A DNA stretch of 64,000 nt from Planctomycetota bacterium (lineage in GTDB: Bacteria; Planctomycetota; UBA1135; JAKEFM01): contig JAKEFM010000240.1 of assembly GCA_022616055.1 (NCBI GenBank), forward strand, positions 5,504 through 69,503. The letters are read 5' to 3'. The number at the start of each line of letters is the position of its first letter. Within the stretch, counting starts at the first letter, position 1. The position numbers and the translations under genes were made by a program. Shown piece by piece: positions 1,371-57,344 of the stretch. The notes under the pieces are model-generated. The model was not told where the DNA came from and did not search any database. It saw nothing but the letters and a program-made list of their open reading frames with translations.

Positions 1371-1395
1371 TCCCGCTCCCCCACCGAGGTCCCCC

Positions 1396-12977: not shown

Positions 12978-14708
12978 TCACATCTCCTCGGGCGCCGCGA
13001 CGCCGAGCAGCCCGAGGCCGACGCGCAGCGTCGCCCTCGCCCCCTCGACGAGGAGGAGCCGCGCCCGCATCAGGGCCTCGTCCTCCCCGATCACCCGGTG
13101 GTCGCGGTAGAAGCCGTTCGCCCGCTGGGCGAGGTCGAGGAGGTAGGTGGAAAGGATCGAGGGCTCGTAGCGGTCTCCCGCCTCGGCGACGGCGCGAGGG
13201 AACTCCGCCAGGACGGGGAGGAGGTCGCCCGCGTCGGCGAGGAGGCCGAAGTCGGTCTTCGCCGGGTCGGGCGCGACGGGGGCCTTGCGGAGGATCGAGC
13301 AGAGGCGCGCGTGCGTGTACTGGAGGTAGGGACCCGTCTCCCCGTCGAAGTTCAGGACCTCCTTCCAGTCGAAGACGACGTCCTTCACGCGGGCGTTCTT
13401 GAGATCGTGGAAGACGACCGCCCCGACGCCGACGGCGCGAGCCACCGCCTCGGTGTCGGCGAGGTCGGGGTTCTTCTCGCGGAGGATCCCACGCACGAGG
13501 TCGATCGAGCGGCGGAGCAGCTCCTCGAGGTGGACTGCCTTGCCGCGGCGGGTCGACATCTTCTCGACCCCCTCCTCCGCCCGGATCTGCATCAGGCCGA
13601 AGTCGACGTGGACGACGTCCTCCGCCCAGGGAAGCCCGAGGCGCTTGAGCACCTCCCGCAGCTGGCGGAAGTGGAGGCGCTGGTCCGCGCCGACGACGTA
13701 GAGCGCCTTCCAGAAGTCGAACTCCTTCTTGCGCTGGAGCGCCGCCGCGAGGTCGCGGGTGGCGTAGAGGGTCGTCCCCTCGGCCGTCTGGAGGATGCAG
13801 GGAGGCATCCCCGCGTCCTCGAGGTCGACGATGAGCGCGCCCTCGCTCCTCTTCGTCACGCCCGCCGCGACGAGCCGCTCGATCGTCGGGGCGAGATCCT
13901 TCTCGTAGTGGGACTCGCCGCGCACGAAGTCGAAGCGGACGCCGAGGAGGGAGTAGATCCGGTCGAACTCGCGGAGCGAGAGGTCGGTCAGCCGCCGCCA
14001 GAGCGCGCGCGCCTCGTTCTCCTCGCCCGACTCGAGCGCCTTGAACCAGGTGCGCGCCTGCGCGGAGAGCTTCCCCGAGGCGTCCTTCCCCTCCTCCTCG
14101 TGGAAGCGGACGTAGAGCTCGTGGAGGTGCGGGATCGGATCGCTCTCGAGACGCGCGGGGTCCCCCCAGAGCTTGAAGGCCGCGATCATCCGGCCGTACT
14201 GCGCCCCCCAGTCCCCGAGGTGGTTGATCCCGACGCACCGGAACCCGCGGTGCGCGAGGAGGCGGTAGACGGCGGCGCCGATCACGGTCGACCGGAGGTG
14301 GCCGACGGAGAGGGGCTTGGCGATGTTCGGGGAGGAGAAGTCGACGACGGCGCATCGGCCGCTCCCGTCCTGGCCGCCCCCCCACCGTTCGCCGGCCGAC
14401 CGGATCGCGGGGAGGAGCTCGCGGGCGAGGGTCGCCCGATCGACGGTGAAGTTGAGGTAGGGGCCCGTCGCCCGGAGGCCGATCGCGGGGCCGAGGTCCG
14501 AGAGGAGCGGCGCGAGGGAGGCGGCCACCTTCGGGGGTGGCTCCCGGCGCTCCTTCGCGAGGGCGAAGCAGGGGAAGGCGTGGTCCCCCATCGCCCGGTC
14601 GCGCGGCGTCTCGAGGACGATCGAGGCCGGCGGCCGTCCCGTCGCGCGGGAGAGGGCCTGGAGGATCTCGGTCCGGAAGTCGCGCACGGCTACGACCAGT
14701 TCTCCCAC
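12978..14708 (-). CDS. argS: arginine--tRNA ligase
   Basis: Class-I motifs SSPNIAKPLSVGHLRS (HIGH-like) and KMSTRRG (KMSK-like), plus an ArgRS-type C-terminal anticodon-binding domain. GTG 14708 overlaps the ABC-F gene by 19 nt. An alternative in-frame GTG at 14687 would remove the overlap. Confidence 0.95.
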   Translation of the reverse strand: MGELVVAVRDFRTEILQALSRATGRPPASIVLETPRDRAMGDHAFPCFALAKERREPPPKVAASLAPLLSDLGPAIGLRATGPYLNFTVDRATLARELLPAIRSAGERWGGGQDGSGRCAVVDFSSPNIAKPLSVGHLRSTVIGAAVYRLLAHRGFRCVGINHLGDWGAQYGRMIAAFKLWGDPARLESDPIPHLHELYVRFHEEEGKDASGKLSAQARTWFKALESGEENEARALWRRLTDLSLREFDRIYSLLGVRFDFVRGESHYEKDLAPTIERLVAAGVTKRSEGALIVDLEDAGMPPCILQTAEGTTLYATRDLAAALQRKKEFDFWKALYVVGADQRLHFRQLREVLKRLGLPWAEDVVHVDFGLMQIRAEEGVEKMSTRRGKAVHLEELLRRSIDLVRGILREKNPDLADTEAVARAVGVGAVVFHDLKNARVKDVVFDWKEVLNFDGETGPYLQYTHARLCSILRKAPVAPDPAKTDFGLLADAGDLLPVLAEFPRAVAEAGDRYEPSILSTYLLDLAQRANGFYRDHRVIGEDEALMRARLLLVEGARATLRVGLGLLGVAAPEEM

Positions 14709-16594
14709 TCCCGGTAGAGCCCCTCGAGCTCGGTGCGGAGCCCCTCGCGCTCGGAGGCGAGCGCCTTCATGCGCGCCCCGTCGAGGTAGACCTCCGGGAG
14801 AGCGGTCTCGGCCTCGATCGCACGGAGTCTCTCCTCGAGGGCGAGGATGCGCTCCTCGAGGCGCGCGAACTTATACGGGTTGCGGATCTTCCCCGCGACG
14901 GGGGCCGGGGCGGGGTCTTTGACGGACGCGGGCGGGGACGGTTTCTCCCGGACGCGCGAGGCTTCCTCGCTCGCCCGCTCCTCGGCGCGCCGGCGCTCGA
15001 AGGCGGCGTAGTTCCCCTCGTAGAGGCGGGCCCGGCCGTCCTCGAGGTGGAGGATCCGATCGGCGACCTGGTCGAGGAAGGCGCGGTCGTGGGAGACGAG
15101 GACCACCGCCCCCGGATAGCGCGAGAGCCCCTCCTCGAGTCCCTCGCGGGCGAAGACGTCGAGGTGGTTCGTCGGCTCGTCGAGGAGGAGGAGGGAGGTC
15201 GGCTCGAGGGTGAGGCGGGCGAGGGCGACGCGGGCGCGCTCGCCCCCGGAGAGGGTCGTCAGGGGCGCGAAGACGGCCTCGCCCCGGAAGAGGAACCGGG
15301 CAAGGTGGTCGCGCAGCTCCGGCTCGAGCGCCCCGGGCTTCCCCTGGGCGGTTTCCTGGATCACGGTCTTCGACAGGTCGAGGTCGGCGAGCTCCTGGTC
15401 GTACGTGCCCGCGGGCCCGTCCCCCCGGTAGCGGGCTTCGCCCTCGTCGGGGAGGCGCTCCCTCGAGGCGATCCGGAGGAGCGTCGTCTTCCCGCAGCCG
15501 TTGCGGCCGACGACGCCGAGGCGCTCGCCGCGGCGGACGGTGAGGTCGAGGCCCTCGAAGAGCGTCCGGCCGCCGAGCCGGGCCGCGACGCCGCGCAGCT
15601 CGAGGACGGACTCGCCCCCCCGCTTCGGCTCGGTCGGCGCGGAGCCGAAGGCGACGCGGGGGCCCGAGGCCTCCGGCCGCGGGGCGTTCGGGACCTCGAG
15701 GCGCTCGAGACGCCGGCGCCGGCCGACCGCCTCCCGCGAGCGCTGGCTCCCGATGTTCCGGCGGATGAACTCCTCCTCCTTCGCGACGAAACGGGCGACC
15801 CGCTCGGCCTCCCTGGCTTGGGTGATGAGCCGGAGCCGGCGCGCCTCCTCGAACCTCTCGAAGTTCCCCCGGTAGCGGTCGACCGTCGGGCTCTCGACGT
15901 GCAGGATCGACCGCGCGAGGGTGTCGAGGAGGCGGCGGTCGTGGGAGACGATGGCGACCGCGCCGGGGTAATCGCGCAGCCGCGCCTCGAGGTACTCGAT
16001 CCCGGCGACGTCGAGGTGGTTCGTCGGCTCGTCGAGGAGGAGGAGGTCGAAGCCCGCCGCGAGGAGCCCCGCGAGAGCCGCCCTCGCCTTCTCCCCGCCC
16101 GAGAGGGTCCCCGCGGGGCGGCCGAAGTCCTCCTTCCGGAACCCGAACGCGGAGAGCCCCTCCTCCACCCGCCGGGGAGCCTCCCAGCCGCCGAGCGCGG
16201 CGAACCGGGACTGGACCTCGTCGTGCCGCCGGACGAGGCGGGCGCGCCGCTCCTCGTCCCTTTCCGCCGCGATCTCCTCCTCCATGGCCCGCAGGTCCGC
16301 CTCGATCTCCCGGTTGCCCGCGAGGGGGAAGGTGGCGACGTCGAGGACGCTCGCCTCCGCGGGAACGTCGGGGATCTGGCCGAGGACGCCGATGCGGGAG
16401 CCCGAGCGCTGGGCGCGCTTCCCGCCGTCGGGCTCCTCCAGGCCCGCGAGGAGCCGGAGGAGGGTCGTCTTCCCGGCGCCGTTGCGACCGACGATCCCGA
16501 CGCGGTCCCCCTCGCCGATCCGGACGTCGACCCGGTCGAGGATGACGCGGTCCCCGAAGGCCCGGCGGACCTTCTCGAGCGCGACGAGGGTCAC
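14690..16594 (-). CDS. ABC-F family ATP-binding cassette protein (translation-associated type)
   Basis: Two Walker A motifs (GRNGAGKTT, GRNGCGKTT), two signature motifs (LSGGEKAR, LSGGERAR), an inter-domain linker and a C-terminal coiled coil. GTG 16594 overlaps the upstream stop (GTGA). Confidence 0.9.
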   Translation of the reverse strand: MTLVALEKVRRAFGDRVILDRVDVRIGEGDRVGIVGRNGAGKTTLLRLLAGLEEPDGGKRAQRSGSRIGVLGQIPDVPAEASVLDVATFPLAGNREIEADLRAMEEEIAAERDEERRARLVRRHDEVQSRFAALGGWEAPRRVEEGLSAFGFRKEDFGRPAGTLSGGEKARAALAGLLAAGFDLLLLDEPTNHLDVAGIEYLEARLRDYPGAVAIVSHDRRLLDTLARSILHVESPTVDRYRGNFERFEEARRLRLITQAREAERVARFVAKEEEFIRRNIGSQRSREAVGRRRRLERLEVPNAPRPEASGPRVAFGSAPTEPKRGGESVLELRGVAARLGGRTLFEGLDLTVRRGERLGVVGRNGCGKTTLLRIASRERLPDEGEARYRGDGPAGTYDQELADLDLSKTVIQETAQGKPGALEPELRDHLARFLFRGEAVFAPLTTLSGGERARVALARLTLEPTSLLLLDEPTNHLDVFAREGLEEGLSRYPGAVVLVSHDRAFLDQVADRILHLEDGRARLYEGNYAAFERRRAEERASEEASRVREKPSPPASVKDPAPAPVAGKIRNPYKFARLEERILALEERLRAIEAETALPEVYLDGARMKALASEREGLRTELEGLYREWENWS

Positions 16595-17181
16595 CGGCCC
16601 CTGAGACCTCCGAGGACGCGCTCGAGGCTCTCCCCCATCCGGCCCTCGAGGTCGTCGCGGAGGGCGAGGGCGAGCTCGTGGTTGCGCCGCACGAAGGGGG
16701 TGTCGCCGTAACGCCGGACGAGATCGTCCGTCCGCTCCTCGACCGTCACGATCCGGTCGTGGGCGACGACGGAGTCGGCGAGCGCGACGACCCGGTCCTC
16801 GAGGGTGAGTTCGGGGAACCCGAACGTCTCGAAGACGCTCTGGAGGAAGCGCGGCGACCACCGGCCGTCGCGGAGCATCTCCTCGAGGGTGCGCCCCTTG
16901 ATCCAGTGGGCGACGCACCCGCGCGCGTAGCGCTCGAGCCCCGCGCGGCGCAGGAGGACGTAGCCGACCCAGCCGTGGGCCGGGCCGTGGGTGCGGGAGC
17001 GGCCGAGGTCGTGGAAGAGGCCGAGGACGCCGAGGTGCTCGGGGTCCGCGCCCTCGCCACTGCGCGCGAGAGCCTCCCCGATCGCCCGGGACACGTCGGC
17101 GACCCGCAGGGAGTGCCTCTTCCAGAGCGCCTCGCCGGGGGCGAGGGCGTCGAAGACCTCGATCGCCTGGCGCCCGTTCAC
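16591..17181 (-). CDS. HD domain-containing phosphohydrolase
   Basis: GTG 17181 overlaps the NUDIX stop (GTGA). H...HD motif: HSLRVADV...LGLFHDLGRS. The upstream part of track ORF 16591..17622 is junk. Confidence 0.75.
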   Translation of the reverse strand: MNGRQAIEVFDALAPGEALWKRHSLRVADVSRAIGEALARSGEGADPEHLGVLGLFHDLGRSRTHGPAHGWVGYVLLRRAGLERYARGCVAHWIKGRTLEEMLRDGRWSPRFLQSVFETFGFPELTLEDRVVALADSVVAHDRIVTVEERTDDLVRRYGDTPFVRRNHELALALRDDLEGRMGESLERVLGGLRGR

Positions 17182-17706: not shown

Positions 17707-18525
17707 ATGCCCGCGACCGTCCCGCGCCGGGAGACGCGCGCCGTCGTCTCCTTCGAGTCGATCGCGGCCGACTGCTTCCGGATCGGCGTCGAGTACCCGC
17801 ACCCCTCCGAGTCGGTCGAGCCCGCCCAGTTCTTCATGCTCCGCCGGACCGACGGCGAGGGGCCTCTCCTGCCGCGCCCCTTCAGCCTCGAGCGGCTGAG
17901 GGACGGCGTCCTCTCCTTCCTCGTCAAGGTCTTCGGCCGCGGCTCGCGCGCCCTCGCGGCGGTCCGCCGCGGGGAGTCCCTCGACCTCGTCGGGCCGCTC
18001 GGCCACGGCTTCGCCCCCGTCCGCCGCGAGGAAGGGGTCGCCATGGTCGCGGGCGGGATCGGGATCGCGCCGTTCGCGCACCTGATCGAGCGCGCCCTCG
18101 GGGCGGGGGTCCCCGCCGCGTCGATGACCCTCGTCTTCGGCTCGGCGAACGCCGCCTCCCTCTACGCGCTCCCCCTCTACGAGTCGTACGGGACCCGCCT
18201 CGTCCTCGCCACGGACGACGGCTCGCGCGGATTCCGCGGGAACGCGGTCGCCTGCTACGGCGCCGAGCTCCAGGCGGGGCGCCTCGACCCCCGCACGCCG
18301 GTGCTCGCCTGCGGCCCCGATCGGATGCTCCACGCCTTCGCTCGGTTCGCGCGCGAGCGCGGGCTCGCGGCCTCCCTCTCGGTCGAGACGTTCATGGCCT
18401 GCGGGATCGGGATCTGCAACGGCTGCTCGGTCCCCGTCGAGCCGGCCCGCTTCGGAGGCTGGCCCTACGCGAAGGCCTGCCGCGAGGGGCCCGTGCTCGC
18501 GGCGGCCGACCTCCGGGGGCCGTAG
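17707..18525 (+). CDS. pyrK: dihydroorotate dehydrogenase electron-transfer subunit
   Basis: FAD/NAD-binding ferredoxin-reductase fold (RPFSL, GGIGIAP) with a C-terminal 2Fe-2S Cys cluster MACGIGICNGCSV...C. Confidence 0.85.
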   Translation: MPATVPRRETRAVVSFESIAADCFRIGVEYPHPSESVEPAQFFMLRRTDGEGPLLPRPFSLERLRDGVLSFLVKVFGRGSRALAAVRRGESLDLVGPLGHGFAPVRREEGVAMVAGGIGIAPFAHLIERALGAGVPAASMTLVFGSANAASLYALPLYESYGTRLVLATDDGSRGFRGNAVACYGAELQAGRLDPRTPVLACGPDRMLHAFARFARERGLAASLSVETFMACGIGICNGCSVPVEPARFGGWPYAKACREGPVLAAADLRGP

Positions 18526-18529
18526 GGCG

Positions 18530-18727
18530 TTGGATCGCGACCGGCGGCGACCCGGCCTCTACCTCCTCCTCGTCCTCCTCGCCGCGGCCCTCGTCTGGTG
18601 GCTCTCCCCCGAGGAGCCGTCGCGGTCCATCGAGAGGGTCCCGCGGCCCGCCTCCCGTCCATCCCCTCCCGCGGACGCCCGTCTCGTCGCGCCGGAGACC
18701 CGCCCCTCGGAGCCGGGGCCCCGCTAG
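18530..18727 (+). CDS. possible small single-pass membrane protein
   Basis: TTG start 4 nt after the pyrK stop. Positive-inside N-terminus (DRDRRRPG) followed by TM LYLLLVLLAAALVWWL. Third codon positions are GC-rich, like real genes here. No homology recognised. Confidence 0.35.
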   Translation: MDRDRRRPGLYLLLVLLAAALVWWLSPEEPSRSIERVPRPASRPSPPADARLVAPETRPSEPGPR

Positions 18728-20659
18728 CTACCCCCCGCGGCGGATGTAGTCGAGCGCGTCGCGCACGAGGGGCGCGTCGGGGTGGTTCGGATCGATCGCA
18801 AGTGCCCGCTCGTAGTACCGGGCCGAGCCCGGCCGGTCGTTGAGGTGGTAGAGGACCTGGCCGAGGCGGAGCGCCGCGGCGAAGTGGTTCGGGTTGATCT
18901 CGAGCGCCCGGTGGAACGCCTCCGCCGCCTTCCGGAAGGCCCCGCGCTCCTGGTAGACGACGCCGAGGTTGAAGCGCGCGCGCTCGTCCCCCGGGTTGAG
19001 GCGGATCGCCGCGCCGAACTCGTCCTCCGCCGATCCGAAGTCCCGCCGGGCGAGGGCGCAGGCGCCGAGCCCGGAGTGGACCTCGGCCGCCTCGATCCCC
19101 CGCTGCCGCTGCCACTCGAGGGTCTTGCGGAAGATCGGCTCGGCGACGTCGAGGGCTCCCTCGGCGAGGTAGGTCCAGGCTTGCCCGAGGTTCGCCTGCG
19201 TCCAGTCCTCGAGGGAGACGTGCCAGCGCGAGGGGTCGACGTCGAGGGCCGCCTCGAACTCGGCGCGCGCCGCGCCCCAGAGGGCCGCCGCGCGGTCCGG
19301 ATCCCGCTCCCTCCCCGCCTGGTCCGCGTAGACGCGGCCGAGGCTCCAGCGCACGGTCGCCGACTCGGGCGAGGCCGCCCGCGCCGCCTCGAAGAACGCG
19401 CGCTCGTCCCGGAAGTCCCGGTTCCGGAGGATGGTCCGCGAGCCGAGGAAGGCCGAGGCGGCGAGGAGCGCGCCGGCGCCGATCGCCCGCCGGAGGCCCG
19501 GGGAGGGGAGGAAGGAGAGGAGCCTCGCCGCGAGGGCCGCGACCGCGAGGCAGAACCCGAGTGAGGGGACGTAGGCGAAGCGCTCCGAGAGGAGGAACTG
19601 GCCGATCGACTCCGGGCGCACGACCACGGGAAGGGTCGCGACCGCGAACCAGAGGGCCCCCCCGAGGACGCCCGGCCCGGCCCGCCGCGCGCGGGTCAGG
19701 GCGAAGGCGTAGGCGAGGAGGACGGCGATCGGGACGAGGACGGCGGCGTCGGTCGGCCGGCGGTCGAGGCGCAGGACGATGAAGGCGTTCGGTTCGAGCG
19801 GGACCGCGAGCCTCGAGAGGTAGCCCGCGAAGAGCTCGAACGGCAGCGTCCAGGTCCTCCAGGGAGCCTGCGCCTCGAGGAAGAGGTGGGTCGGCTGCCG
19901 GTCGAACCCTCCCCGCCAGTCGCCGTACGCGTGGATGCGCAGCCCGAGGTAGGCGGCGTACCCGAGCACGAAGGGGAGGTAGCGCGAGAGGGGGCGGAAC
20001 CGGGAGAACCGCCCCTCCGCCGCGGACGGGACCGGGAAGGCCGCGTCGAGGGCGAGGGCGAGCGGGAGGAGGGAGAGCGCCATCTCCTTGCCCGCGAGGG
20101 CGAGGAGGGAGAGGGGAGCGACGGACCAGGGGATCCCCCTCGCCCCCCGGTCTCGCCAGCGCAGGTAGGCGAGGAGGGAGGCGAAGAGGAAGACGGCGCA
20201 CGAGACGTCGGAGATCCCCGAGATCCAGGTGACGCTCTCGGCGTGGATCGGATGGGTCGCGAACAGGAGCGCGGCGGCGAAGGCGACCGCGTCGCTGCGC
20301 GCGAGGCGCCGCGCGAGGAGGAAGCCGAGGGCGCACGCGGAGGCGTGGAGGACGACGGCGACGAGGTGGTAGCCCCAGGGCTCGGGCCCCGAGATCTGCC
20401 ACCCCGCCGTCAGGAGCACGGTGACGAGCGGCCGGTAGAACCCGATCTGCTTCGACCAGTTCGGATTCGCGACGTCCCAGAACCCCCGCGTCAGCGCGTG
20501 GGGGAGATTCGCGGGGTCGCGTATCTCGGCGTTGCGCTCGACGAGGAGGAGGTCGTCGTAGACGAATCCCGCCCCCCGGACGGCCGGGCCGTACGAGGTC
20601 GCGACCGCGGCGAGGATCGCGGCGAGCGCGAGCGGGGCGCGCAGGCGGACGGGGATCAC
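18728..20659 (-). CDS. GT-C fold membrane glycosyltransferase (PMT_2/DUF1736, TMTC-like) with C-terminal TPR repeats
   Basis: About 11 predicted TM segments. Loop motif FATHPIHAESVTWISGISD. The C-terminal ~220 aa are canonical TPRs (AWTYLAEG..., LGVVYQERGAFRKAAEAFHRALEINP). Confidence 0.8.
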   Translation of the reverse strand: MIPVRLRAPLALAAILAAVATSYGPAVRGAGFVYDDLLLVERNAEIRDPANLPHALTRGFWDVANPNWSKQIGFYRPLVTVLLTAGWQISGPEPWGYHLVAVVLHASACALGFLLARRLARSDAVAFAAALLFATHPIHAESVTWISGISDVSCAVFLFASLLAYLRWRDRGARGIPWSVAPLSLLALAGKEMALSLLPLALALDAAFPVPSAAEGRFSRFRPLSRYLPFVLGYAAYLGLRIHAYGDWRGGFDRQPTHLFLEAQAPWRTWTLPFELFAGYLSRLAVPLEPNAFIVLRLDRRPTDAAVLVPIAVLLAYAFALTRARRAGPGVLGGALWFAVATLPVVVRPESIGQFLLSERFAYVPSLGFCLAVAALAARLLSFLPSPGLRRAIGAGALLAASAFLGSRTILRNRDFRDERAFFEAARAASPESATVRWSLGRVYADQAGRERDPDRAAALWGAARAEFEAALDVDPSRWHVSLEDWTQANLGQAWTYLAEGALDVAEPIFRKTLEWQRQRGIEAAEVHSGLGACALARRDFGSAEDEFGAAIRLNPGDERARFNLGVVYQERGAFRKAAEAFHRALEINPNHFAAALRLGQVLYHLNDRPGSARYYERALAIDPNHPDAPLVRDALDYIRRGG

Positions 20660-20702
20660 GCCCCGGCCGCTGGCCGCGCGGAGCGGATCGAGCCCGGCGC
20701 GG

Positions 20703-22433
20703 CTACTGGACGGTCACCGACCGAACCGGCGTCGTCGGGAAGGGGACCGTCGCGAAGTCGAAGGCGACCCCCTGGAAGTAGACCGTCGCGCCGGGCGGCG
20801 CGGGGGGGATCGTCGCGGAGAACTCGCTCACCCCCGCCGCGTTCGGCGGCGGCGTGGGGAAGGAGTGGATATCGGAGAAGTTGTTGCCGATCCCGAGGGA
20901 GATGATGCCCGGGAGCACCGAGGGGAGGTTCGAGCTGCTCCACGCGATCACGTGGGCGAAGCCGAGCGGGGTCGCCATCCGGCAGGTGAAGGTCTGCCCC
21001 ACGAGCTGGATCGGCGGGCCCGTGTCGAGCTCGGGGGCCGTCACGGCGACGACGGAGAAGGTCGAGGGGCAGGAGGGTCCCCCGGCCGTCGAGATCGTGA
21101 CCGCCTTCGACCCGAGGGTCGAGAAGAGGGGGAGCGGGAAGTGGACCTGGATGTCGTTGTCGACGACGAAGTCGCCCGTGTCGAGCGTCACCCCCCCGAC
21201 GTCGATCGACGTCAGGGTGGAGTACTGCGCGGGGGAGACGCAGGCCGGTCCCCCCGGGACGCATCCCATCGTCGCGGCGCCGGCCGGCGCGACGACCGTC
21301 ACCTCCGTCATCGGGACGGAGAGGACGGGGACGGAGTTCGGGGCGATCGTGCCGATGCACTGGGCGCAGGGGGCGCCGTTCCCCCCGCTCGTGAAGTGGA
21401 CCGGGAACCCGTTCGAGAGGGTGCTCCCGCCCGTGGAGGTGCCGACCTTCACGAAGAGGTCCCCGTCGACGACGTTGCAGGGGGGGACGACGGTGATCTG
21501 GGTGCCCCCCGCCGCGGAGGCGAGGTTCGTCACCTTGACGATCGCCGCGCCCACGGCGTTCGTCCCCGGCGCCTGCGCCCCTCCCGGGTTGAACCAGACC
21601 TCGTTCCCCGTCGCGGCGAAGTTCAACCCGTTGACGACCATCGGGAGCTGGGCGGAGATCGCCCCCACCGGCTGGAGGCCGAGGATCTTCGGCTTGACCG
21701 GGGACCGGAAGCCGTAGACGAGCTGCAGCCCGGTCTTGTCGTCCGCCTGGATCGAGCGCCGGTCGACCGTCGGGGGTCCCGACTGGATCGTCCCGTACAT
21801 CGTCTGGATCGGGTTCGTCGGCGGCGTGGGAGGGACGACGAGCCCCAGCCCGAGGGCGAGGCCGAGCTGGATCGTCGCCATCCCCTGGATGTCGAACCGG
21901 GGGTCGAACGGAGGCAGGGTCCCGACCCCGTCGAACCACAGGAACTCCGGGCTGAAGCGGATCCGCCAGCCGGTGCCGTCGGGCCCCGGGCCCGGACCCT
22001 CGATGATCGCGGGCACGCCCGCCGTCGGCAGGGGGACGAGCGAGTAGGAGATGATCCGGTCGGCGAGGGCCCCCTCCCCCGTCGCCGTTCCGGCCCAGAC
22101 GAAGTCGAAGTTCGCCTCGCCCGACCCGAGGGAGTCGGGGAAGGGGGGCTGCGTCGGGTCGCCGAGCCCGGCGCCGTTGTGGGGCCAGGAGGCCCACTCC
22201 GTCGCCGCCTTCCAGCAGGCGAGGACGGGGCCCACCGCCCCGGGGAAGTTGACGAGGTCCTGCGTGAAGTTCGTGTTCGCGTCCGGCGGCCAAGTGTTCC
22301 GGACTCGGAAGTCGCGGACGGTCGTGTTGAGGGAGAACCCGGCGAGCGTGTACCCCGTGGAGGTCGTCGGGAGCGAGAGGAGCCACGCGCCCGCGAGGGC
22401 CGCGGTCGTGAGGAGGAGGCGGGAGGTTCGCAT
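20703..22433 (-). CDS. secreted protein: degenerate (catalytically dead) matrixin-like domain plus IPT/TIG domains
   Basis: Signal peptide MRTSRLLLTTAALAGAWLL. ATIQLGLALGLGL...QTMYG...ADDKTGLQLVYG aligns with the metzincin HEXXHXXGXXH / Met-turn region, but with the His and Glu residues replaced. Two IPT-like modules (PKILGLQPVGAISAQLPMVVNGLNF...). Confidence 0.8.
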   Translation of the reverse strand: MRTSRLLLTTAALAGAWLLSLPTTSTGYTLAGFSLNTTVRDFRVRNTWPPDANTNFTQDLVNFPGAVGPVLACWKAATEWASWPHNGAGLGDPTQPPFPDSLGSGEANFDFVWAGTATGEGALADRIISYSLVPLPTAGVPAIIEGPGPGPDGTGWRIRFSPEFLWFDGVGTLPPFDPRFDIQGMATIQLGLALGLGLVVPPTPPTNPIQTMYGTIQSGPPTVDRRSIQADDKTGLQLVYGFRSPVKPKILGLQPVGAISAQLPMVVNGLNFAATGNEVWFNPGGAQAPGTNAVGAAIVKVTNLASAAGGTQITVVPPCNVVDGDLFVKVGTSTGGSTLSNGFPVHFTSGGNGAPCAQCIGTIAPNSVPVLSVPMTEVTVVAPAGAATMGCVPGGPACVSPAQYSTLTSIDVGGVTLDTGDFVVDNDIQVHFPLPLFSTLGSKAVTISTAGGPSCPSTFSVVAVTAPELDTGPPIQLVGQTFTCRMATPLGFAHVIAWSSSNLPSVLPGIISLGIGNNFSDIHSFPTPPPNAAGVSEFSATIPPAPPGATVYFQGVAFDFATVPFPTTPVRSVTVQ

Positions 22434-22442
22434 GACGGACTC

Positions 22443-22991
22443 CTAGGGACGCTGCTCGGCCCCGGCGGCGCGGATGGCGGAGATGCGCTCCCGCAGGTCG
22501 GCGACTCGGACGTTCTTCTCGACCGCGAACCCCTCCCCGCGACCGAGGACGACGTCTCCCCTCGGCCCCCCCTCCACGCGGAAGAGGCCCCCGAACCCGG
22601 CGTAGAGGCTGTTGTAGTCCATCCCCTCGGCCGTCCGGCACGACTTCGAGAAGACGAGGGCTCGGGTGCCCACCCGGGTCTCCCGCGAGCTCGGGGATTC
22701 CGCGCACCAGGACTCCTTGTCCCGCGTGCGCCCCCCGAGGAAGGTGACGACGATCTCCTCCTCCCGTCCCGTGTAGAGGTTCTCCCCCCGCACCGTCACG
22801 CGCGTGACGATCTCGGAGACCCCGTTCATCGTCACCTCGGCCCCCGTCACGTCGACGATCGTCCCGGCGACGGCGGCGTTGGTCTTCCCGACCATCTTCG
22901 GGAGGTCGAGCCACTCGACCACGCGCGCGGAGGCGGCGGGGGCGAGGACGAGGAGAGGGAGGAGGGGGACGAACCGACGAAGCGGGAGCAT
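22443..22991 (-). CDS. secreted hypothetical protein
   Basis: ATG 22991 is preceded by GGAG. Signal peptide MLPLRRFVPLLPLLVLAPAASA. 9-nt gap to the downstream gene. No family recognised. Confidence 0.6.
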   Translation of the reverse strand: MLPLRRFVPLLPLLVLAPAASARVVEWLDLPKMVGKTNAAVAGTIVDVTGAEVTMNGVSEIVTRVTVRGENLYTGREEEIVVTFLGGRTRDKESWCAESPSSRETRVGTRALVFSKSCRTAEGMDYNSLYAGFGGLFRVEGGPRGDVVLGRGEGFAVEKNVRVADLRERISAIRAAGAEQRP

Positions 22992-23184
22992 CCGGTAGAT
23001 CTCCGCGCGGGGGGAAGCGGCGGGCATGGGCAAGTCGCGTTGCGAAGGAAGGATAGCCGTCATCGAAAGAGCCTGTCCAGCCGAAGGGCCACTCGAAGGA
23101 ATCGGGGCTCACGAGGTTAGCCTCGTCCGGGGGGGCGGTAACCGGGCCATCCGTCCCCGCCGTTATGCTCGGGGCCTTCGAGGG

Positions 23185-24213
23185 ATGCGTCCTCTCCCCG
23201 CCGCCGCCATCCTGCTCGCCGCCTGTCACGCCGCCTCCCCTGGGGGCGGACTCCCCGCGGAGGCAGCGGGGAGACCGGGCCCACTGGACGTCTCCCCCAT
23301 GCCCCCCTGGACCCGTCACCTCGAGGGGGTGAGGGTCGCGATCGACCCGGGCCACGGCGGCGACGCCGACCGCCCCGGGTACAAGCGGGGCCCGACGGGC
23401 GTCCGGGAGGCCGAGGCAAACCTGCGCGTGGCCCTCGCGCTCGCGGAGATGCTCGAGGCGGCCGGCGCGATCCCCGTGCTGACCCGCCGCGAGGACCGCG
23501 ACGTCCCTCTCGCCGAGCGGGCCCGGATCGCGGAGCGGGAGGCGTGCGACCTCTTCCTCTCGATCCACCACAACGCGATCTCGGACCCCTCGAGGAACTT
23601 CGGCACCGTCTGGGTGCACGCGGATCCCGACCACTCCCCCGCCTCCCTCGACCTCGCCTGGTCGATCCACCGGGAGGTCAACCGCATCCTCGACCTTCCG
23701 CAGTCGGTCCCCTGTCCGATCCTCTCCGATCGGCTCATGGTCGAGCGGGGCTTCGCCGTCCTCCGGGAGGCGAGCATGCCGGCGGTCCTCTCGGAGGCCT
23801 CGTTCCACACGAATCCGGAGGAGGAGCGCCGCCTCTCCGACCCCGAGTACAACCGCCGCGAGGCCTACGGCCACTTCCTCGGCCTCGCCCGCCACGCGGA
23901 GGGAGGCTTCCCGCGGGCGGCGCTCCTCGCGTCCCGCGTCGGACGCGCCGACCCCATATTGCGGATCGCCCTCGACGACGGGCTCCAGGCCCGCAAGGGA
24001 TGGGGGAGCGAGCGCCCCCGGATCCTCGCGGGGTCGATCTCGGTCCGGATCGACGGTCTTCCCGTCCGGCACCTCTACGACGGGGCCTCCGGCCGCGTCG
24101 CCGTCGACGCCTCGGGGCTCGGCGCCGGGGTCCACTCCCTCGACCTCCGGTTCGAGAACGTCTTCAAGCACTCGAACCACCCGACGCGGTTCGAGTTCGA
24201 GGTCGCCCCGTAG
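23185..24213 (+). CDS. N-acetylmuramoyl-L-alanine amidase (Amidase_3 family) lipoprotein
   Basis: ATG 23185. Lipobox LLAAC. Motifs VAIDPGHGG, E..NL..AL, FLSIHHNA, SEASFHTNPEE. Extra C-terminal ~100 aa of unknown function. Confidence 0.85.
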   Translation: MRPLPAAAILLAACHAASPGGGLPAEAAGRPGPLDVSPMPPWTRHLEGVRVAIDPGHGGDADRPGYKRGPTGVREAEANLRVALALAEMLEAAGAIPVLTRREDRDVPLAERARIAEREACDLFLSIHHNAISDPSRNFGTVWVHADPDHSPASLDLAWSIHREVNRILDLPQSVPCPILSDRLMVERGFAVLREASMPAVLSEASFHTNPEEERRLSDPEYNRREAYGHFLGLARHAEGGFPRAALLASRVGRADPILRIALDDGLQARKGWGSERPRILAGSISVRIDGLPVRHLYDGASGRVAVDASGLGAGVHSLDLRFENVFKHSNHPTRFEFEVAP

Positions 24214-24229: not shown

Positions 24230-25849
24230 TCAGGGGCCGGTGCGGCGCTCGACCTTCCCGGGCGGATCGGCGTGCTCGAGGTCGTTGCGCTTGAAGGTGA
24301 AGAGCCAGACCTCGGTCTCCCCCTCCCGCGCGAGCACGCTCATCGGGACGTAGCCTTCGCGGAACTCCGCGGAGGCGAGGACGAGGGCCCCGACCGCCGA
24401 GCCGGGCTTGCACGTCTCCCGGTCCGCGCTCGGGACGAAGACGTAGGAGGGGCGCTCCTTGAACAGGTGGCGGAGCAGCCGCTCCTCCCAGTCGGGGCCC
24501 GCCTCGCGCGGTGTGCGCGCGACGAAGTGGTCCGTGAGGCCGTTCCAGTCGATCGCCCGTCGTCCGCTCCAGTAGGGGAGGGCGCCGGCCCCGGGGCCGA
24601 GGACCCACGCGTCGGCCGCGGCGTTCTCCGCCAGCCACTTCCCCATCCGGACGCTCGCGCACTCCTCGAAGTCCATCCGGCGGAGCGATTCCGGGCGGAT
24701 ACGGCGAAGCGAGGTCCTCCACCCGCAGGCCGCGCAGGCGAGGAGGATCCCGCCGAGGAGGGTCGTGAGGAGGACGAACTCCCTCCGGACGGTCAGGCGG
24801 GCGGAGAGGGCCGCGCGGGTGTGGTCGAGGGCGCGCACGAAGAGGAGGAAGACGAAGGGGAGGGCCGGGACGAGGAGGCGGTGGTGCCCCTCCCCCTCCC
24901 CTCCCGAGGCGAGCTGGAGGAGGAGGCGGCCGGCGATCGCGAAGAGGGCGTACCCCTTCCACGGCTCCGCTCCGGCGCCGACGAGGGCGACCGCCGCCAT
25001 TCCGGCGAGGAGGAAGCCGCCGTGCTCGTCGAGGAGGGCGAGCGCGCGGTAGGCGCCCCGGGCCGCGAGCGCGAGGGCCTCGGCCGAGGGGCGCGCGTAG
25101 AACGCGTTCGGGAGGGGTTGCCCGGTGTAGGCGAACCGGGCGGCCCAGGCTCCGCCGGCGAGGATCAGGAAGACGCCGACCGGGGCGAGGAGCGCGCGGA
25201 CCAGGGGGAGCTGGGGCTCGAGGATGCGGTTCCGGGCCAGCCCGCGCCAGGCGAGGAAGAACGGGAAGGCGAGCGCCCCGTCGGGGCGCGCGAGGGCGAG
25301 CAGCGCCGCGAGCCCCCCCCAGACGACGTCGCCGCGCCCCGTCTTCGTCGCGCGCACCGCCATGTGCGTCGTGGCGAGGAGGAGGAAGACGAACATCGGC
25401 GTCTCCGCGCCCGCCGCCGTCTCGTAGGCGAAGGCGGAGCTGGAGGCGAGGAGGAGGGGAGCGGCGAGGGCGAGCCAGCGCCCGGCGAAGGGGATCTCCC
25501 GGACGAGGACGAGGAGGGAGGCCTGCGACCCGACGTGGAAGGCGATCCCCATCGCCTTCGAGAAGGCGAGCGTCCCGATCCCGAGCTTGGCGGCGAACGC
25601 GAGGAAAGTGACCCAGAGGAAGCTCGTGTAGCCGTCGGCCCGTTCGCCCGGGTTGAAGACGAGGCCGTTCCCCTGCGCGATGTTCTCCGCGTACCGGCAG
25701 TAGGTGTAGGCGTCCGCGGAGACGACCCTCCCGTAGAGGAGGGAGTGGAAGACCCCGAGGGCGATCACCGCGGCGGCCGCGATCCACCAGGATCGCGACG
25801 CCCCGGGAGGCGCCGGGGTGCTCTCCAGGGGGGACTCGGGCTCGGACAT
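24230..25849 (-). CDS. GT-C fold integral membrane glycosyltransferase (ArnT/PMT-like)
   Basis: ATG 25849. Multiple TM helices. First periplasmic loop DAYTYCRYAENIAQGNGLVFNPGERADGYTSFLW resembles the acidic-loop region of GT-C enzymes. Soluble C-terminal ~150 aa. Confidence 0.75.
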   Translation of the reverse strand: MSEPESPLESTPAPPGASRSWWIAAAAVIALGVFHSLLYGRVVSADAYTYCRYAENIAQGNGLVFNPGERADGYTSFLWVTFLAFAAKLGIGTLAFSKAMGIAFHVGSQASLLVLVREIPFAGRWLALAAPLLLASSSAFAYETAAGAETPMFVFLLLATTHMAVRATKTGRGDVVWGGLAALLALARPDGALAFPFFLAWRGLARNRILEPQLPLVRALLAPVGVFLILAGGAWAARFAYTGQPLPNAFYARPSAEALALAARGAYRALALLDEHGGFLLAGMAAVALVGAGAEPWKGYALFAIAGRLLLQLASGGEGEGHHRLLVPALPFVFLLFVRALDHTRAALSARLTVRREFVLLTTLLGGILLACAACGWRTSLRRIRPESLRRMDFEECASVRMGKWLAENAAADAWVLGPGAGALPYWSGRRAIDWNGLTDHFVARTPREAGPDWEERLLRHLFKERPSYVFVPSADRETCKPGSAVGALVLASAEFREGYVPMSVLAREGETEVWLFTFKRNDLEHADPPGKVERRTGP

Positions 25850-25915
25850 CGTCCCCGGATATCGGCAGATCCCCTCGCCGAACCTGGGCTCTCCCTTCCC
25901 GTCGCGGGAGGGGGG

Positions 25916-25921
25916 TATACT
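25916..25921 (+). promoter_or_regulatory. candidate -10 hexamer TATACT followed by CCGCC
   Basis: GGGGGTATACTCCGCC lies 47 nt upstream of the FG-GAP gene ATG (25968). It belongs to the recurrent TAnnnT-CCGCC pattern described in the findings. Confidence 0.25.
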
Positions 25922-25967
25922 CCGCCAGGGCGGAAAAGACCGGTTCCGAGAGCACCCCGTCGGATCC

Positions 25968-27902
25968 ATGCGCCATCGGGCCTTCGGACTTCAGGCTCGG
26001 CGAGTAGCCGTCGCTTCCTCGTTCCTCGCCTCCGCCGGTCTCGCGCAGAGTCCCGCGATCCTCCGCGCCGGCTCCCCCGGACCCGGGCTCACTCTCGCCT
26101 CGGGCTCTCACGTCGAGGACCACATGGGGGTGGCGGTGTCCGGCGGCGGGGACTTCAACGGAGACGGATACCCCGACCTGCTGATCGGCGGAGGGGCCGC
26201 GCAGATCGCGAGCGGGCTGCAGCCCGGCGCCGCGGCGATCGTCTACGGGGGTCCGTCGATGCCGCCGGTCACCTACCTCGGAGACACCTCCCCGGGGTCG
26301 GTGTACCTCCTCGGGCAGGCCGACGCGGACTTCGCGGGCTGGGCCCTCTCCTTCGCGGGAGACGTGAACGCCGACGGCTACGACGACGTCGTCGTCGGGG
26401 CCTACGCGGCGGACTCGGCGGGATCCCTCGACACGGGGGCCGCGTACGTGGTCTTCGGAGGGCCCGTCGCGACCGGCACCTATTCGCTCCCCAACCCGCC
26501 GATGGGGGGGATGGTGCTCCTCGGCGCGGAGCCGAACGAGCGCGTCGGATTCGCGGTCGCCGGCGCGGGGGACGTGAACGGGGACGGGTTCGACGACGTC
26601 CTCGTCGGGGCTCCCCTGGCCGACACCGCCGGCCTGATGGACGGGGGGAAGGTCTTTCTCCTCTACGGCTCGCCGAACCCGCCTCCCTTCCTCACCGAAG
26701 CGACGCTCGGCGCGAACGGGGTCGTGATGATCCCCGAGGCGGCGTTCGGGTCCGCGGGCTTCGCGGTCGCCGGGGCGGGGGACGTCAACGGGGACGGCCT
26801 CGACGACATGCTCGTCGGCTCGCCGACGTTCTTCACCGGAGGGGTCTTCGCCGGACGGGCCTACCTCGTGGCGGGAGGGCCGAGCCTCCCTCCGACCCTC
26901 CTCCTCGGCTCCGCGCTCGCGCTCATCTTCGGACCCCCCGAGAACGGTCTCTGCGGGCACGCCCTGGCCGGGGTCGGCGACCTCGATGCGGACGGGTACG
27001 ACGACATCCTCGTGGGGGCTCCGTACTACGACCCGCTCTCGCGGGCAGACGCCGGCTCGGCCTACCTCTTTCTCGGCGGGGCCTCCCTGTCGGGCTCGGT
27101 CCTCCTGCCGGGGGGCGTCGCGACCACCTTCGTCGGGGCGAACGACCTCGATCGGGCGGGCCAGGCGCTCTCCGGGGCGGGGGACGTCGACGGGGACGGG
27201 GTCCTCGACTTCCTCATCGGGGCTCCCTACTGGGACGACCCCGCCGGCGCGAGCGAGGGGAGGACCTACCTGATCCTCGGCGAGGTCCCGATGCCGGCCT
27301 ACGTCGACCTCGCGCTCCCGGGACGCTCGACCGTCGTCCTCCAGGGGACCGAGCCCGCGGGGATCCTCGGCTTCGCGCTCTCCGGATGCGGGGACGTCGA
27401 CGGGGACGGGTACGACGACGTCGTCGCCTGCGCGCCCTACGCGGATCCCCTCGGGCTCTTCAACGGCGGGACGAGCGCCCTCTTCTACGGGGGGAGGACC
27501 CCCGACGTCGTCGGGGCGGGCTGCTCGGGCTCGGCGGGCGCGGAGCCCCAGGCCTGGTTCTCGGGGGACTTCCCCCGCGTCGGCGCGTCCACCTTCGCCC
27601 TGACCCTCGGGGGAGCCACGCCGGGGAGCGTCGCCGCCCTCGCGGTCGGCGTGCCGCTCCCCCCGACCTGGCCAGGCATCCCCCTCGCCCAGTACGGGCT
27701 TCCCGGCTGCATGTTCCGGGTCCTCCCCTCGCTCCTCCTCAACACGGTCGTCGATCCGGACGGCGCGGCCGACTTCCCCACGCCGATCCCCAACTCCGCC
27801 TCCCTCCTCGGCTTCTCCGCCGACGTCCAGTGGGTGGTCGTCGGCCTCCCCGGTCCGTTCGTCTCCGCCTCGGACCCGATCCGGATCCTGGTCGGCCCCT
27901 GA
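25968..27902 (+). CDS. secreted FG-GAP (integrin-alpha-like) repeat protein
   Basis: ATG 25968 with a signal peptide. At least 7 repeats of the form G.(A/S).(A/G)GDVNGDG(Y/F)DD(V/L)(L/V)(V/I)GAP. Distinct C-terminal Cys-pair domain. Confidence 0.85.
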   Translation: MRHRAFGLQARRVAVASSFLASAGLAQSPAILRAGSPGPGLTLASGSHVEDHMGVAVSGGGDFNGDGYPDLLIGGGAAQIASGLQPGAAAIVYGGPSMPPVTYLGDTSPGSVYLLGQADADFAGWALSFAGDVNADGYDDVVVGAYAADSAGSLDTGAAYVVFGGPVATGTYSLPNPPMGGMVLLGAEPNERVGFAVAGAGDVNGDGFDDVLVGAPLADTAGLMDGGKVFLLYGSPNPPPFLTEATLGANGVVMIPEAAFGSAGFAVAGAGDVNGDGLDDMLVGSPTFFTGGVFAGRAYLVAGGPSLPPTLLLGSALALIFGPPENGLCGHALAGVGDLDADGYDDILVGAPYYDPLSRADAGSAYLFLGGASLSGSVLLPGGVATTFVGANDLDRAGQALSGAGDVDGDGVLDFLIGAPYWDDPAGASEGRTYLILGEVPMPAYVDLALPGRSTVVLQGTEPAGILGFALSGCGDVDGDGYDDVVACAPYADPLGLFNGGTSALFYGGRTPDVVGAGCSGSAGAEPQAWFSGDFPRVGASTFALTLGGATPGSVAALAVGVPLPPTWPGIPLAQYGLPGCMFRVLPSLLLNTVVDPDGAADFPTPIPNSASLLGFSADVQWVVVGLPGPFVSASDPIRILVGP

Positions 27903-27986
27903 CGGGCGGGGCGCTCCCTCGATAGCATGCCGCCGATCCCGCCGAGGCCGGCGGGTCCCGGAAACCGCATCCGCATGGAGGCCGCC

Positions 27987-28658
27987 ATGTCCGAACCCGC
28001 CACCCTGACCCCCGCACCGACCCTCCCGCGTCTGAACGAACCCGCCCCCGACTTCGAGGCGACGACCTCGCAGGGGTCCTTTCGCCTCTCGGAGAAGCGC
28101 GGGAAGTGGGTCGTCCTCTTCTCCCACCCCGCCGACTTCACGCCGGTCTGCACGACCGAGTTCGTCGAGTTCGCGAAGCGCTACGAGGAGTTCCGCAAGC
28201 GCAACGTCGAGCTCGTCGGCCTGTCCGTCGACTCCGGCTTCTCCCACATCGGCTGGATCCGGAACATCGAGTCGACCTTCAAGATCCAGATCCCCTTCCC
28301 CGTGATCGCCGACCGCGACATGCGGATCGCCCAGCTCTACGGGATGATCCACAAGGCGGCGAGCGACACGGCGACCGTCCGCTGCGTCTTCTTCATCGAC
28401 GACAAGGGGACGATCCGGGCGATGATCTACTACCCGATGACGAACGGGCGGAACATGGACGAGATCCTCCGCCTCGTCGACGCGATCCAGACGAGCGACA
28501 AGCACGCCTGCGCGACCCCGGCGAACTGGCGGCCCGGCGAGAAGGTCATCGTCCCCCCGCCGAAGACGACCGCGGACGCGACGAAGCGGACGACCGAGGG
28601 GTACGAGTGCAAGGACTGGTACCTCTGCTTCAAGGAGGTCCCCGCGACGAGCCGCTAG
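27987..28658 (+). CDS. 1-Cys peroxiredoxin (Prx6-like)
   Basis: Peroxidatic motif FSHPADFTPVCTTEF and a conserved C-terminal extension. ATG 27987 was chosen; alternatives are ATG 27975 and the annotated ORF start 27927. Confidence 0.9.
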   Translation: MSEPATLTPAPTLPRLNEPAPDFEATTSQGSFRLSEKRGKWVVLFSHPADFTPVCTTEFVEFAKRYEEFRKRNVELVGLSVDSGFSHIGWIRNIESTFKIQIPFPVIADRDMRIAQLYGMIHKAASDTATVRCVFFIDDKGTIRAMIYYPMTNGRNMDEILRLVDAIQTSDKHACATPANWRPGEKVIVPPPKTTADATKRTTEGYECKDWYLCFKEVPATSR

Positions 28659-41454: not shown

Positions 41455-41531
41455 GGGAGGGAAGGGGTCGAGCCGCGATTATCGCGGGGCGCGAGGTCGT
41501 GCCGGAGGGGGTTCGCGCTACGATCCGCCGC

Positions 41532-42242: not shown

Positions 42243-42688
42243 TCCTCCCGTCCCCGCGGGTCCGGCCGTCCGGCCGGCCCGTAGTAGTCGACGAGGTTCT
42301 CGTCCGACTCGAGGAGGCGCACCCGGTAGAGTTGCGACCCTTCGAGCGCGGGCTCGACGAGGTCCCAGATCTTGATCGCGACGTTCTCGGCCGTCGGGAT
42401 GACGCCCGCCAGGCACTCGACGTCGCGGTTGAGGTCCCGGTGATCGAGGAGGGAGACGACGCGCTCCTCGAGGATCTCCTTGAGGACCTTGAGGTCGAGG
42501 ACCATCCCGGTGCGCGGCGGGACCGTTCCGCGGACGGTCACCTCGAGGACGTAGTTGTGGCCATGCGGGTTCGAGCAGACGCCGAAGGTCCGCCGGTTCT
42601 CCTCGGGGGAGAGGGAGGGGTTGTGGAGGGTGTGGGCGGCGCAGAACCTCACGCGCCGCGAGATGTAGAGGATCGGAGGGGACTCCAC
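42239..42688 (-). CDS. queD: 6-carboxy-5,6,7,8-tetrahydropterin synthase
   Basis: Motifs FCAAHTL and CSNPHGHNY...E (zinc and catalytic residues of the PTPS/QueD family). GTG start. Confidence 0.9.
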   Translation of the reverse strand: MESPPILYISRRVRFCAAHTLHNPSLSPEENRRTFGVCSNPHGHNYVLEVTVRGTVPPRTGMVLDLKVLKEILEERVVSLLDHRDLNRDVECLAGVIPTAENVAIKIWDLVEPALEGSQLYRVRLLESDENLVDYYGPAGRPDPRGRED

Positions 42689-42783
42689 GTGGCGGCCTCG
42701 CCGCGCGCGATCCCGGACGGCGCCCCGGCGAGGAAGGCTCTTATCCGACGCCCCTTCCCCCCGGTCAAGGCGGGGACCCTCCC

Positions 42784-57328: not shown

Positions 57329-57344
57329 CCGCCCGCCAGACCCC

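Follow-up and report, generated by a model that had tools for sequence, protein, structure and literature searches.

In a 64,000-nucleotide stretch of DNA from an uncultured Planctomycetota bacterium (GenBank assembly GCA_022616055.1, contig JAKEFM010000240.1, positions 5,504 to 69,503 of the forward strand; here called 'the window'), three genes on the minus strand, A, B and C, form a real and tight unit. Gene A encodes a small protein with a signal peptide. Gene B encodes what its relatives identify as a pseudoprotease of the matrixin family, carrying three immunoglobulin (Ig)-like domains. Gene C encodes a predicted membrane enzyme of the TMTC type, in which a GT-C domain is followed by tetratricopeptide repeats (TPRs). 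Homology and gene order suggest that C O-glycosylates B and/or A, a proposal to which we give only slightly less than an even chance. A more ambitious version, which we hold more tentatively, sees C as a bacterial protein O-glycosyltransferase of the TMTC type that is dedicated to cognate acceptors (B and/or A) encoded beside it in one operon. They would then be the first such pair, and the system a bacterial counterpart—possibly the ancestral state—of the domain-specific O-mannosylation of beta-sandwich domains in metazoa.

The metazoan proteins TMTC1-4 are TPR-containing GT-C protein O-mannosyltransferases that act on the extracellular cadherin (EC) domains of cadherins. Like TMEM260, the TMTCs O-mannosylate beta-sandwich domains in a domain-specific manner. 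A 2026 preprint on TMEM260 shows that its TPR domain is by itself able to bind an extended peptide from the A-strand of IPT domains, and that a Thr in the B-strand is mannosylated. Proteins of TMTC architecture are numerous in prokaryotes, where they are described as uncharacterised (PMC7801869); we found no functional study of them in the searchable literature.

Organization of the operon

The window is rich in G+C throughout (70–75%, ~73% overall), and long open reading frames (ORFs) are present in every frame. Genuine genes were distinguished from shadow ORFs by their G+C composition at the first, second and third codon positions (GC1, GC2 and GC3). Genes A, B and C have GC3 values of 0.93–0.98 and GC2 values of 0.51–0.55, the composition of real genes (see Table 1 for coordinates). 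They are co-directional, in the order A-B-C. The A stop codon is separated from the B ATG by 9 nt and is overlapped by an AGGAG Shine-Dalgarno sequence; the gap between B and C is 43 nt. Upstream of A lies a sigma-70-like promoter candidate, the sole such site in positions 18300..23400, where shuffling the sequence 50 times gave an expectation of 0.0. No terminator-like site occurs between A, B and C on the operon strand; the one site found lies on the opposite strand, inside A. We read A-B-C as a real unit because of this composition, the short gaps, the Shine-Dalgarno sequence, the single promoter-like site upstream and the lack of an internal terminator. An earlier note on this DNA, written by a model from the letters alone, had already described the three minus-strand genes as a tight unit, with the correct 9 nt between A and B and one nucleotide too many (44 nt) between B and C. 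A and B each begin with a hydrophobic, signal-like segment, and C contains ~11 hydrophobic segments.

Gene C: a TMTC-like GT-C protein

A protein identical to C is on record (P0038), as a 'tetratricopeptide repeat protein' from a Planctomycetes metagenome-assembled genome (MAG). Its Pfam matches above threshold are TPRs only (TPR_2 at 8.8e-20, TPR_1 at 2.2e-18, and others), about five repeats within residues ~495-630. PMT_2 is matched below threshold (E 0.0046; 17.6 bits versus a cut-off of 26.1), DUF1736 (PF08409) is not matched at all in Pfam scans, and the NCBIfam family PrMnsylTfPmt is matched faintly (E 3e-4; 19.7 bits versus a cut-off of 800). The label 'PMT_2/DUF1736 + TPR' that C had been given is thus right as to the TPRs and unsupported at family thresholds as to the rest; what connects C to TMTCs is the membrane domain by itself. 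Searching with residues 1-480, which keeps the TPRs out, returned 190 proteins. Among them are a bee TMTC2 (E 1.3e-20), a TMTC from a fish (E 8.6e-19) and numerous bacterial proteins with PF08409 or PF13231; P0086 matches PF08409 at 9e-28. In BLASTP, C is 35% identical to the bee TMTC2 across 195 amino acids (aa) that span transmembrane (TM) segments TM1-TM6 (E 1e-21), and a second aligned segment runs from the ERxxY motif through TM11 to the junction with the TPRs. This junction, a conserved RNxD(W/F)xDE after the last TM segment, is present in C as it is in TMTC2, and the TPRs follow. A PDB sequence search with the profile of the TM part found no solved structure related to C, so the GT-C fold is assigned here by sequence homology. 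A search with the full-length profile was discarded, TPR proteins having dominated the matches.

C was checked against the seven TMTC motifs of PMC7801869. Motif M1, with the catalytic Asp pair (D35-D36), reads FVYDD in C and aligns with FVYDD of the bee TMTC2; it is invariant in our alignment A7, and in alignment A5 the DD is kept in all but two N-terminally incomplete sequences. Of M2 (SHKSYRP, loop EL1), only YRP (residues 75-77) is kept, as KQIGFYRP, and the M2 His and Lys, proposed contacts for mannose and phosphate, are not aligned. C keeps HPxHxE. M4, KE(T/Q)xxT, appears as K191-E192-M-A-L-S, with K191 invariant and E192 at least 90% conserved. M7, ERxxY, appears as E359-R360-F-A-Y363, with R360 and Y363 invariant and E359 at least 90% conserved. 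The topology of the DD loop suggests that the TPR domain is extracytoplasmic. On solid homology, then, C is a TMTC-like GT-C protein with its catalytic-core motifs intact and about five periplasmic TPRs, and it is probably active. These comparisons make it a divergent member of the TMTC family and not an orthologue of the animal proteins.

Conservation of these motifs also bears on the idea that C is mainly a membrane-anchored docking or maturation platform for A and B, using its TPRs for inner-membrane retention, folding or release, with glycosyl transfer secondary or lost. TPR domains bind proteins in a generic way; with B being non-catalytic, the whole module may be structural; and TPR length varies between clades, C having 643 aa here versus 870-970 aa elsewhere. 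We nevertheless consider this idea very improbable, for the preservation of DD, KE and ERxxY across the aligned C sequences that cover the region argues for a retained enzymatic function. The dN/dS ratio of C is 0.37.

Gene B: a pseudo-matrixin with Ig-like domains

Gene B of the window has no Pfam match even at an E-value of 10, TIG (PF01833) and PF00413 included, and none in NCBIfam or, by sequence, in the PDB. Its 37 detectable relatives, most of them annotated as metalloproteases of the matrixin family, all come from Planctomycetota MAGs or metagenomes. Scanned one by one, 29 of 34 relatives match Peptidase_M10 (PF00413; best 2.4e-15) and five match TIG (PF01833; best 5.4e-8). B is connected to the matrixins transitively, through its match to P0008 (E 1.8e-56). 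Pfam misses B of the window because its HExxHxxGxxH motif has become IQLGLALGLGL: the three zinc-binding His and the catalytic Glu are all lost (I188, Q189, L192 and L198 in the motif). The Met-turn (M212) and the sequence DDxxGxxxxYG (D231, D232, G235, Y240) are kept, and are invariant in alignments A1 and A6. HExxHxxGxxH is intact in nearly all relatives, and its loss is confined to the window clade (the window and P0001-P0005). It has degenerated independently in P0013 and P0035, and P0023 lacks the catalytic Glu only. Gene B is under purifying selection and is not decaying, since its orthologues, at 55–90% identity, are full length and its dN/dS (0.41–0.44) is close to that of C.

An AlphaFold 2 (AF2) model of B (pLDDT 82.8) has an alpha/beta domain at residues ~28-245, followed by beta-sandwiches at 247-350, ~360-462 and ~465-576. 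In Foldseek, the C-terminal part of the model matches tandem Ig/FN3/IPT arrays across ~340-400 columns at E-values of 1e-10 to 1e-6, the IPT domains of plexin A1 among them. These matches identify the Ig-like (E-set) beta-sandwich fold class, and do not single out IPT among Ig-like folds. Outside the protease fold, the first Ig-like domain is the best-conserved part of the protein, with the near-invariant sequences NFxxTGNEVWF, GD(V/L)xVK and LSNxxP, and with Ser or Thr at a frequency of at least 70% (119 sequences) at positions 266, 275, 282, 306, 311, 334 and 340. Most members of the family have Thr at the position equivalent to the TMEM260 acceptor (LTIxGxNF; 74% Ser/Thr). Taken together with its relatives, B is a matrixin-family pseudoprotease with three Ig-like domains. 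To call it a secreted IPT/TIG protein, as had been done, describes it only in part: the Ig-like domains are there, the first of them IPT/TIG-type in relatives, and the main matrixin part was missed. B genes also occur in tandem arrays of three to four copies (L006:3395-11001; L047; L059; L062; L073), some with and some without an A gene of their own. These arrays point to a rapid expansion of paralogous secreted (pseudo)proteases in these Planctomycetota.

Gene A: a matrixin-associated family

Gene A, like its orthologues, encodes 182 aa, comprising a signal peptide and a beta-rich domain of ~155 aa with no match in Pfam, NCBIfam or PDB sequences. A profile search of 1.84e9 representative proteins returned 371 clusters (50% identity), 65 of them at E <= 1e-10. 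A few members are fusions: P0257 consists of a signal peptide, an A-domain, Peptidase_M10 and LRR; P0291 of an A-domain, TIG and Peptidase_M10; and P0242 of an A-domain, MAM and TIG. The A-domain is confirmed by hhalign in P0257 (97%) and in P0291 (96.7%). At locus L033, a stand-alone A gene (50-565) precedes a fused protein of the A-Peptidase_M10 type (579-3569). Because A lies upstream of B, and is fused N-terminally to matrixins elsewhere, it looks like a matrixin-associated module at the prodomain position, that is, a prodomain-like partner of B. It may act as a trans-acting prodomain, an inhibitor or a chaperone module. An AF2 model built from eight sequences (pLDDT 70.5) gave weak OB-fold matches only (best E 0.015), including TIMP-2 (E 0.088, TM 0.33). 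The mature N-terminus, (A/R)(I/V)(E/V)RLDL, has no Cys, and there is no cysteine switch. Identification of A as a TIMP was rejected, given the missing zinc-chelating N-terminal Cys and the weakness of the OB-fold matches.

Conservation of the gene order

Three sets of loci (numbered L001 and so on) were searched with profiles of A, B and C: those around individual homologues, 20 from GTDB species genomes and 79 from metagenomes. Collapsing the loci at 80% B identity gave 80 clusters, 48 of which have enough downstream DNA for C to be assessed; no contig position was found for P0016. Of the partners of B, A shows the tightest coupling, a point that the earlier note had missed. A lies directly upstream (0–150 nt, typically ~10–30) of 60 of 85 assessable B genes. 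A TMTC-like gene follows the last B, co-directionally, in 27 of the 48 assessable clusters, within 700 nt in 21 of these, and every one of the 27 covers the membrane domain of the profile and not the TPRs alone. At the linked loci, B is 32–43% identical to B of the window, and the neighbouring ABC-F and PyrK-like proteins are ~40–46% identical to their counterparts in the window; by these identities the loci represent a deep divergence and many Planctomycetota lineages. Of 32 loci with A, 22 have C as well, compared with one of the 10 that lack A (Fisher p = 0.002, uncorrected for phylogeny). The distance from C to PyrK ranges from 0 to 6.5 kb, and A-B-C is mostly contiguous. The earlier note had staked its proposal on linkage of the IPT-protein and GT-C genes in related genomes; that linkage is conserved, since 27 of 48 clusters retain C downstream of B at deep divergence.

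The 927-aa protein encoded at L008:4515-7298 (+), before the second A-B cassette of the L001/L002 genome, has ~10–12 hydrophobic segments and a soluble region in its centre, and ends in TPRs. Being dissimilar to C, it was not counted as C-type linkage; it has no Pfam match outside the TPRs and could be a different kind of membrane/TPR partner. In another lineage, at locus L030 (311-10150), two tandem TMTC-like GT-C/TPR genes come after a pair of N_methyl (type IV pilin-like) genes, an ABC transporter gene and one for a PAP2 phosphatase, in what may be a cluster for pilin glycosylation or lipid-carrier recycling. The notion that TMTC-like genes generally adjoin Ig/IPT proteins was rejected once three other lineages had been checked.

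Does C glycosylate B or A?

We propose C as a glycosyltransferase of B and/or A because its closest characterised relatives glycosylate specific beta-sandwich domains, B has three such domains, and the genes adjoin. The activity of C, the protein nature of its acceptor, the choice of B or A as that acceptor and the identity of the sugar are all things that we infer. The locus would be a three-gene module of the cell envelope. A and B would be exported through Sec. B, with a matrixin fold that has lost its zinc site, would be kept as a non-catalytic binding or structural protein that displays its Ig-like domains, and A, a small beta-barrel module, would be its obligate partner. C would be an inner-membrane enzyme that uses a polyprenyl-phosphate sugar as its donor on the periplasmic side. 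Its TPR domain would bind a partner protein of the operon, just exported, along an extended stretch, and Ser/Thr residues of B (most likely in the first IPT-like domain, where T275, S306, T311, T334 and S340 are the prime candidates) and/or of A would be O-glycosylated on entry into the periplasm.

A number of observations weigh against this proposal, several of them to do with gene order. No C lies nearby in 21 of the 48 assessable clusters. B and C are not contiguous in two of the genome loci, L006 and L029, or in a few of those from metagenomes, where other DNA lies between them. The genome that holds L001 has a second A-B cassette (L008/L028) without a TMTC-like neighbour, and L013 reads PyrK-A-B, with no C. 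The convergent PyrK-like gene and the ABC-F gene are likewise conserved beside C in many loci. Because these two are also syntenic, part of the linkage signal reflects the shared ancestry of a stable, lineage-wide region, and the loci are not phylogenetically independent. TMTC-like genes in three other lineages (L030-L032; one Acidobacteriota MAG) have unrelated neighbours, as does a paralogue of C in the window itself, which sits among SDR, PTPS and transketolase-like genes. Much of this would suit a C that is a general, or otherwise targeted, periplasmic protein O-glycosyltransferase, like the Pmt of actinobacteria, and that stands beside A-B by inherited synteny, A and B being a self-contained pair of (pseudo)protease and partner. 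Such a pair is suggested, too, by the A-B cassettes without C at L040, L064 and other loci, by the tandem A-B arrays without C at L047 and L059, and by the A-matrixin association at L033, which lies outside this clade and has no TMTC-like neighbour. We judge this explanation unlikely, if the most serious of the alternatives. The short-gap, co-directional adjacency persists where B is 32–43% and ABC-F ~40% identical, a distance at which most gene order is lost; insertions pile up between C and PyrK and rarely between B and C; and C co-occurs with the cassettes that contain A.

Other points against glycosylation of B or A by C concern the enzyme. Motif M3 (RxD, loop EL2) is not kept, GISD replacing GRAD in the window clade, whereas other bacterial relatives retain the Arg. 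Nor is M5 (DW, loop EL4, in the DUF1736 region), SFDWS aligning to PLEPN-AF. The lack of these TMTC-specific motifs and the undetected DUF1736 region would be in keeping with an acceptor other than protein, be it lipid, lipopolysaccharide or cell-wall glycan. C would then resemble ArnT and the arabinosyl and mannosyl GT-C enzymes, its TPRs making protein-protein contacts unrelated to catalysis on B. By HHpred, ArnT is the nearest structural homologue of TMTC membrane domains (PMC7801869). This is improbable, in our view. The nearest characterised relatives of C in sequence are protein O-mannosyltransferases, TPRs fused to GT-C cores mark protein acceptors in TMTC and TMEM260, and the operon has no genes for glycan biosynthesis.

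The last points against concern acceptor and donor. Position 266, the structural equivalent of the TMEM260 acceptor Thr, is Val in B of the window, and position 282, Thr in relatives, is Asn. The operon has no linked gene for synthesis of a donor; the GT2 gene discussed below is 34 kb away. For the glycosylation module that the earlier note had drawn, then, the TMTC-like C with its catalytic motifs, the Ig-like domains of B and the linkage have all held, while Val266 occupies the TMEM260 site and housekeeping genes share the synteny.

Comparison with known systems

Like TMTC1-4, C has a GT-C domain of ~11 TM segments ahead of extracytoplasmic TPRs, keeps the DD, YRP, HPxHxE, KE and ERxxY motifs, and has a beta-sandwich protein as its candidate acceptor. 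It differs in being bacterial, with a donor that would be a bacterial polyprenyl-phosphate sugar and not dolichyl-phosphate mannose (Dol-P-Man); in having neither M3 nor M5 and only about five TPRs; in having its candidate acceptor in the same operon; and in being known here from sequence. With TMEM260, which acts on the IPT domains of plexins, MET and RON, C shares a GT-C core joined to TPRs, those of TMEM260 capturing the IPT A-strand, and most of the B family has the equivalent acceptor Thr. The searches run do not make C a homologue of TMEM260, however: it is TMTC-like and without the Rossmann-like palm domain. Besides having Val at the acceptor position, B of the window has no copy of the proposed sequon, PxxxxxPxxxGPxxGGGxxT.

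Actinobacterial Pmt and fungal PMT enzymes are likewise GT-C proteins, facing the periplasm or lumen, that use polyprenyl-phosphate mannose to O-glycosylate exported proteins, and C matches their families weakly. Unlike them, C has no MIR or WW-like domain, and its scores fall well short of the family cut-offs. Pmt, as a general enzyme, is not encoded beside its substrates. Matrixins (MEROPS M10A; e.g. MMPs and karilysin) resemble the relatives of B in having Peptidase_M10, HExxHxxGxxH, the Met-turn and DDxxGxxxxYG. B differs from them in lacking the three zinc His and the catalytic Glu. A resembles the matrixin prodomain in its position in fusions, and TIMP-2, weakly, in its OB-fold-like model; it differs in being a separate gene, with neither the cysteine switch nor the N-terminal Cys of TIMPs, and its fold matches have E-values of at least 0.015.

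Other genes in the window

Table 1. Positions of the operon, its domains and motifs, and other features of the window.
Feature	Position	Strand	Length, basis or remark
ABC-F ATPase	14690..16918	-	Syntenic
PyrK-like gene (NAD_binding_1 + DHODB_Fe-S_bind), convergent with C	17707..18525	+	Syntenic
Gene C	18728..20659	-	643 aa
C residues ~420-643, predicted periplasmic TPR domain	18728..19402	-	Pfam TPRs
C residues 1-415, TMTC-type GT-C membrane domain, ~11 TM segments	19415..20659	-	TM-only homology and motifs
C codons D35-D36 (FVYDD), predicted GT-C catalytic DD, first periplasmic loop	20552..20557	-	Motif M1 of PMC7801869
Gene B	20703..22433	-	576 aa
B residues ~360-576, second and third beta-sandwich domains	20706..21356	-	AF2 model, Foldseek
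B residues 247-350, first Ig-like domain (IPT/TIG-type in relatives)	21384..21695	-	Conserved motifs, AF2 model
B residues ~28-245, matrixin-like domain	21699..22352	-	Alignment A1; AF2 model with three helices and a beta-sheet
B residues 188-198, degenerate zinc motif	21840..21872	-	IQLGLALGLGL instead of HExxHxxGxxH
Gene A	22443..22991	-	182 aa from the ATG used by orthologues; longest ORF extends to 23063
Sigma-70-like promoter candidate upstream of A	23050..23079	-	TGGACA, 18 nt spacer, TATCCT; consensus match only
Amidase_3 (N-acetylmuramoyl-L-alanine amidase), upstream of operon	23026..24213	+	
Multi-TM protein, putative 'third GT-C'	24230..25969	-	STT3 E 0.03; arabinofuranosyltransferase E 1e-4
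FG-GAP repeat protein	25818..27902	+	
Peroxiredoxin	27927..28658	+	
TMTC-like paralogue of C	42784..44709		27% identity to C, E 4e-15; PMT_2 E 5.5e-4
Second FG-GAP paralogue	46978..48843		
GT2 gene	56411..57505	-	Whole catalytic domain resembles those of ArnC, archaeal DPMS and GtrB (E 1.7e-10 to 6.5e-6)

Three other glycosyltransferase genes had been pointed out in the window. The paralogue of C is real, with no demonstrated operon link. The 661-aa ORF beside it (40802..42787, +), which overlaps its start by 4 nt and was considered as a second 'adjacent substrate', was rejected as a shadow ORF: it has GC1/2/3 values of 0.81/0.66/0.73, is rich in Arg and Pro, and has no Pfam match. It illustrates how ORF lists can mislead at 73% G+C. 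The GT2 gene, suggested as a source of lipid-linked donor, is also real and is ArnC/DPMS/GtrB-like over the extent given in Table 1; it could make a polyprenyl-phosphate sugar, and has no operon link. A class I methyltransferase gene (55750..56430, -) comes after it with a 20-nt overlap, and the two may be co-transcribed. The 'third GT-C' is indeed a multi-TM protein; its GT-C identity comes from the faint matches in Table 1, it has no relative in the PDB and no demonstrated link to the operon, with which it is syntenic in close relatives only. L001 shows the same synteny for the multi-TM, FG-GAP and peroxiredoxin genes, but has thioredoxin-like genes in place of the amidase. The PyrK-like and ABC-F neighbourhood is kept more widely (L016, L017, L020-L022, L051, L065 and L109, at ~40% ABC-F identity), a durable synteny that is unusual for seemingly unrelated genes.

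Significance

Protein O-glycosylation by GT-C enzymes was already known, and prokaryotic TMTC homologues had been noted without being characterised (PMC7801869). The new elements are an operon, conserved and specific to its clade, that points to candidate acceptors; a pseudo-matrixin; and the A family as a partner of matrixins. An operon that names candidate secreted acceptors makes the function of bacterial TMTC-like enzymes approachable by experiment. If C does glycosylate B or A, they would be the first enzyme–substrate pair for the large, uncharacterised family of prokaryotic TMTC-like proteins. Whatever the outcome for glycosylation, the A family and the lineage that keeps a conserved pseudoenzyme bear on how secreted metalloproteases are controlled in bacteria.

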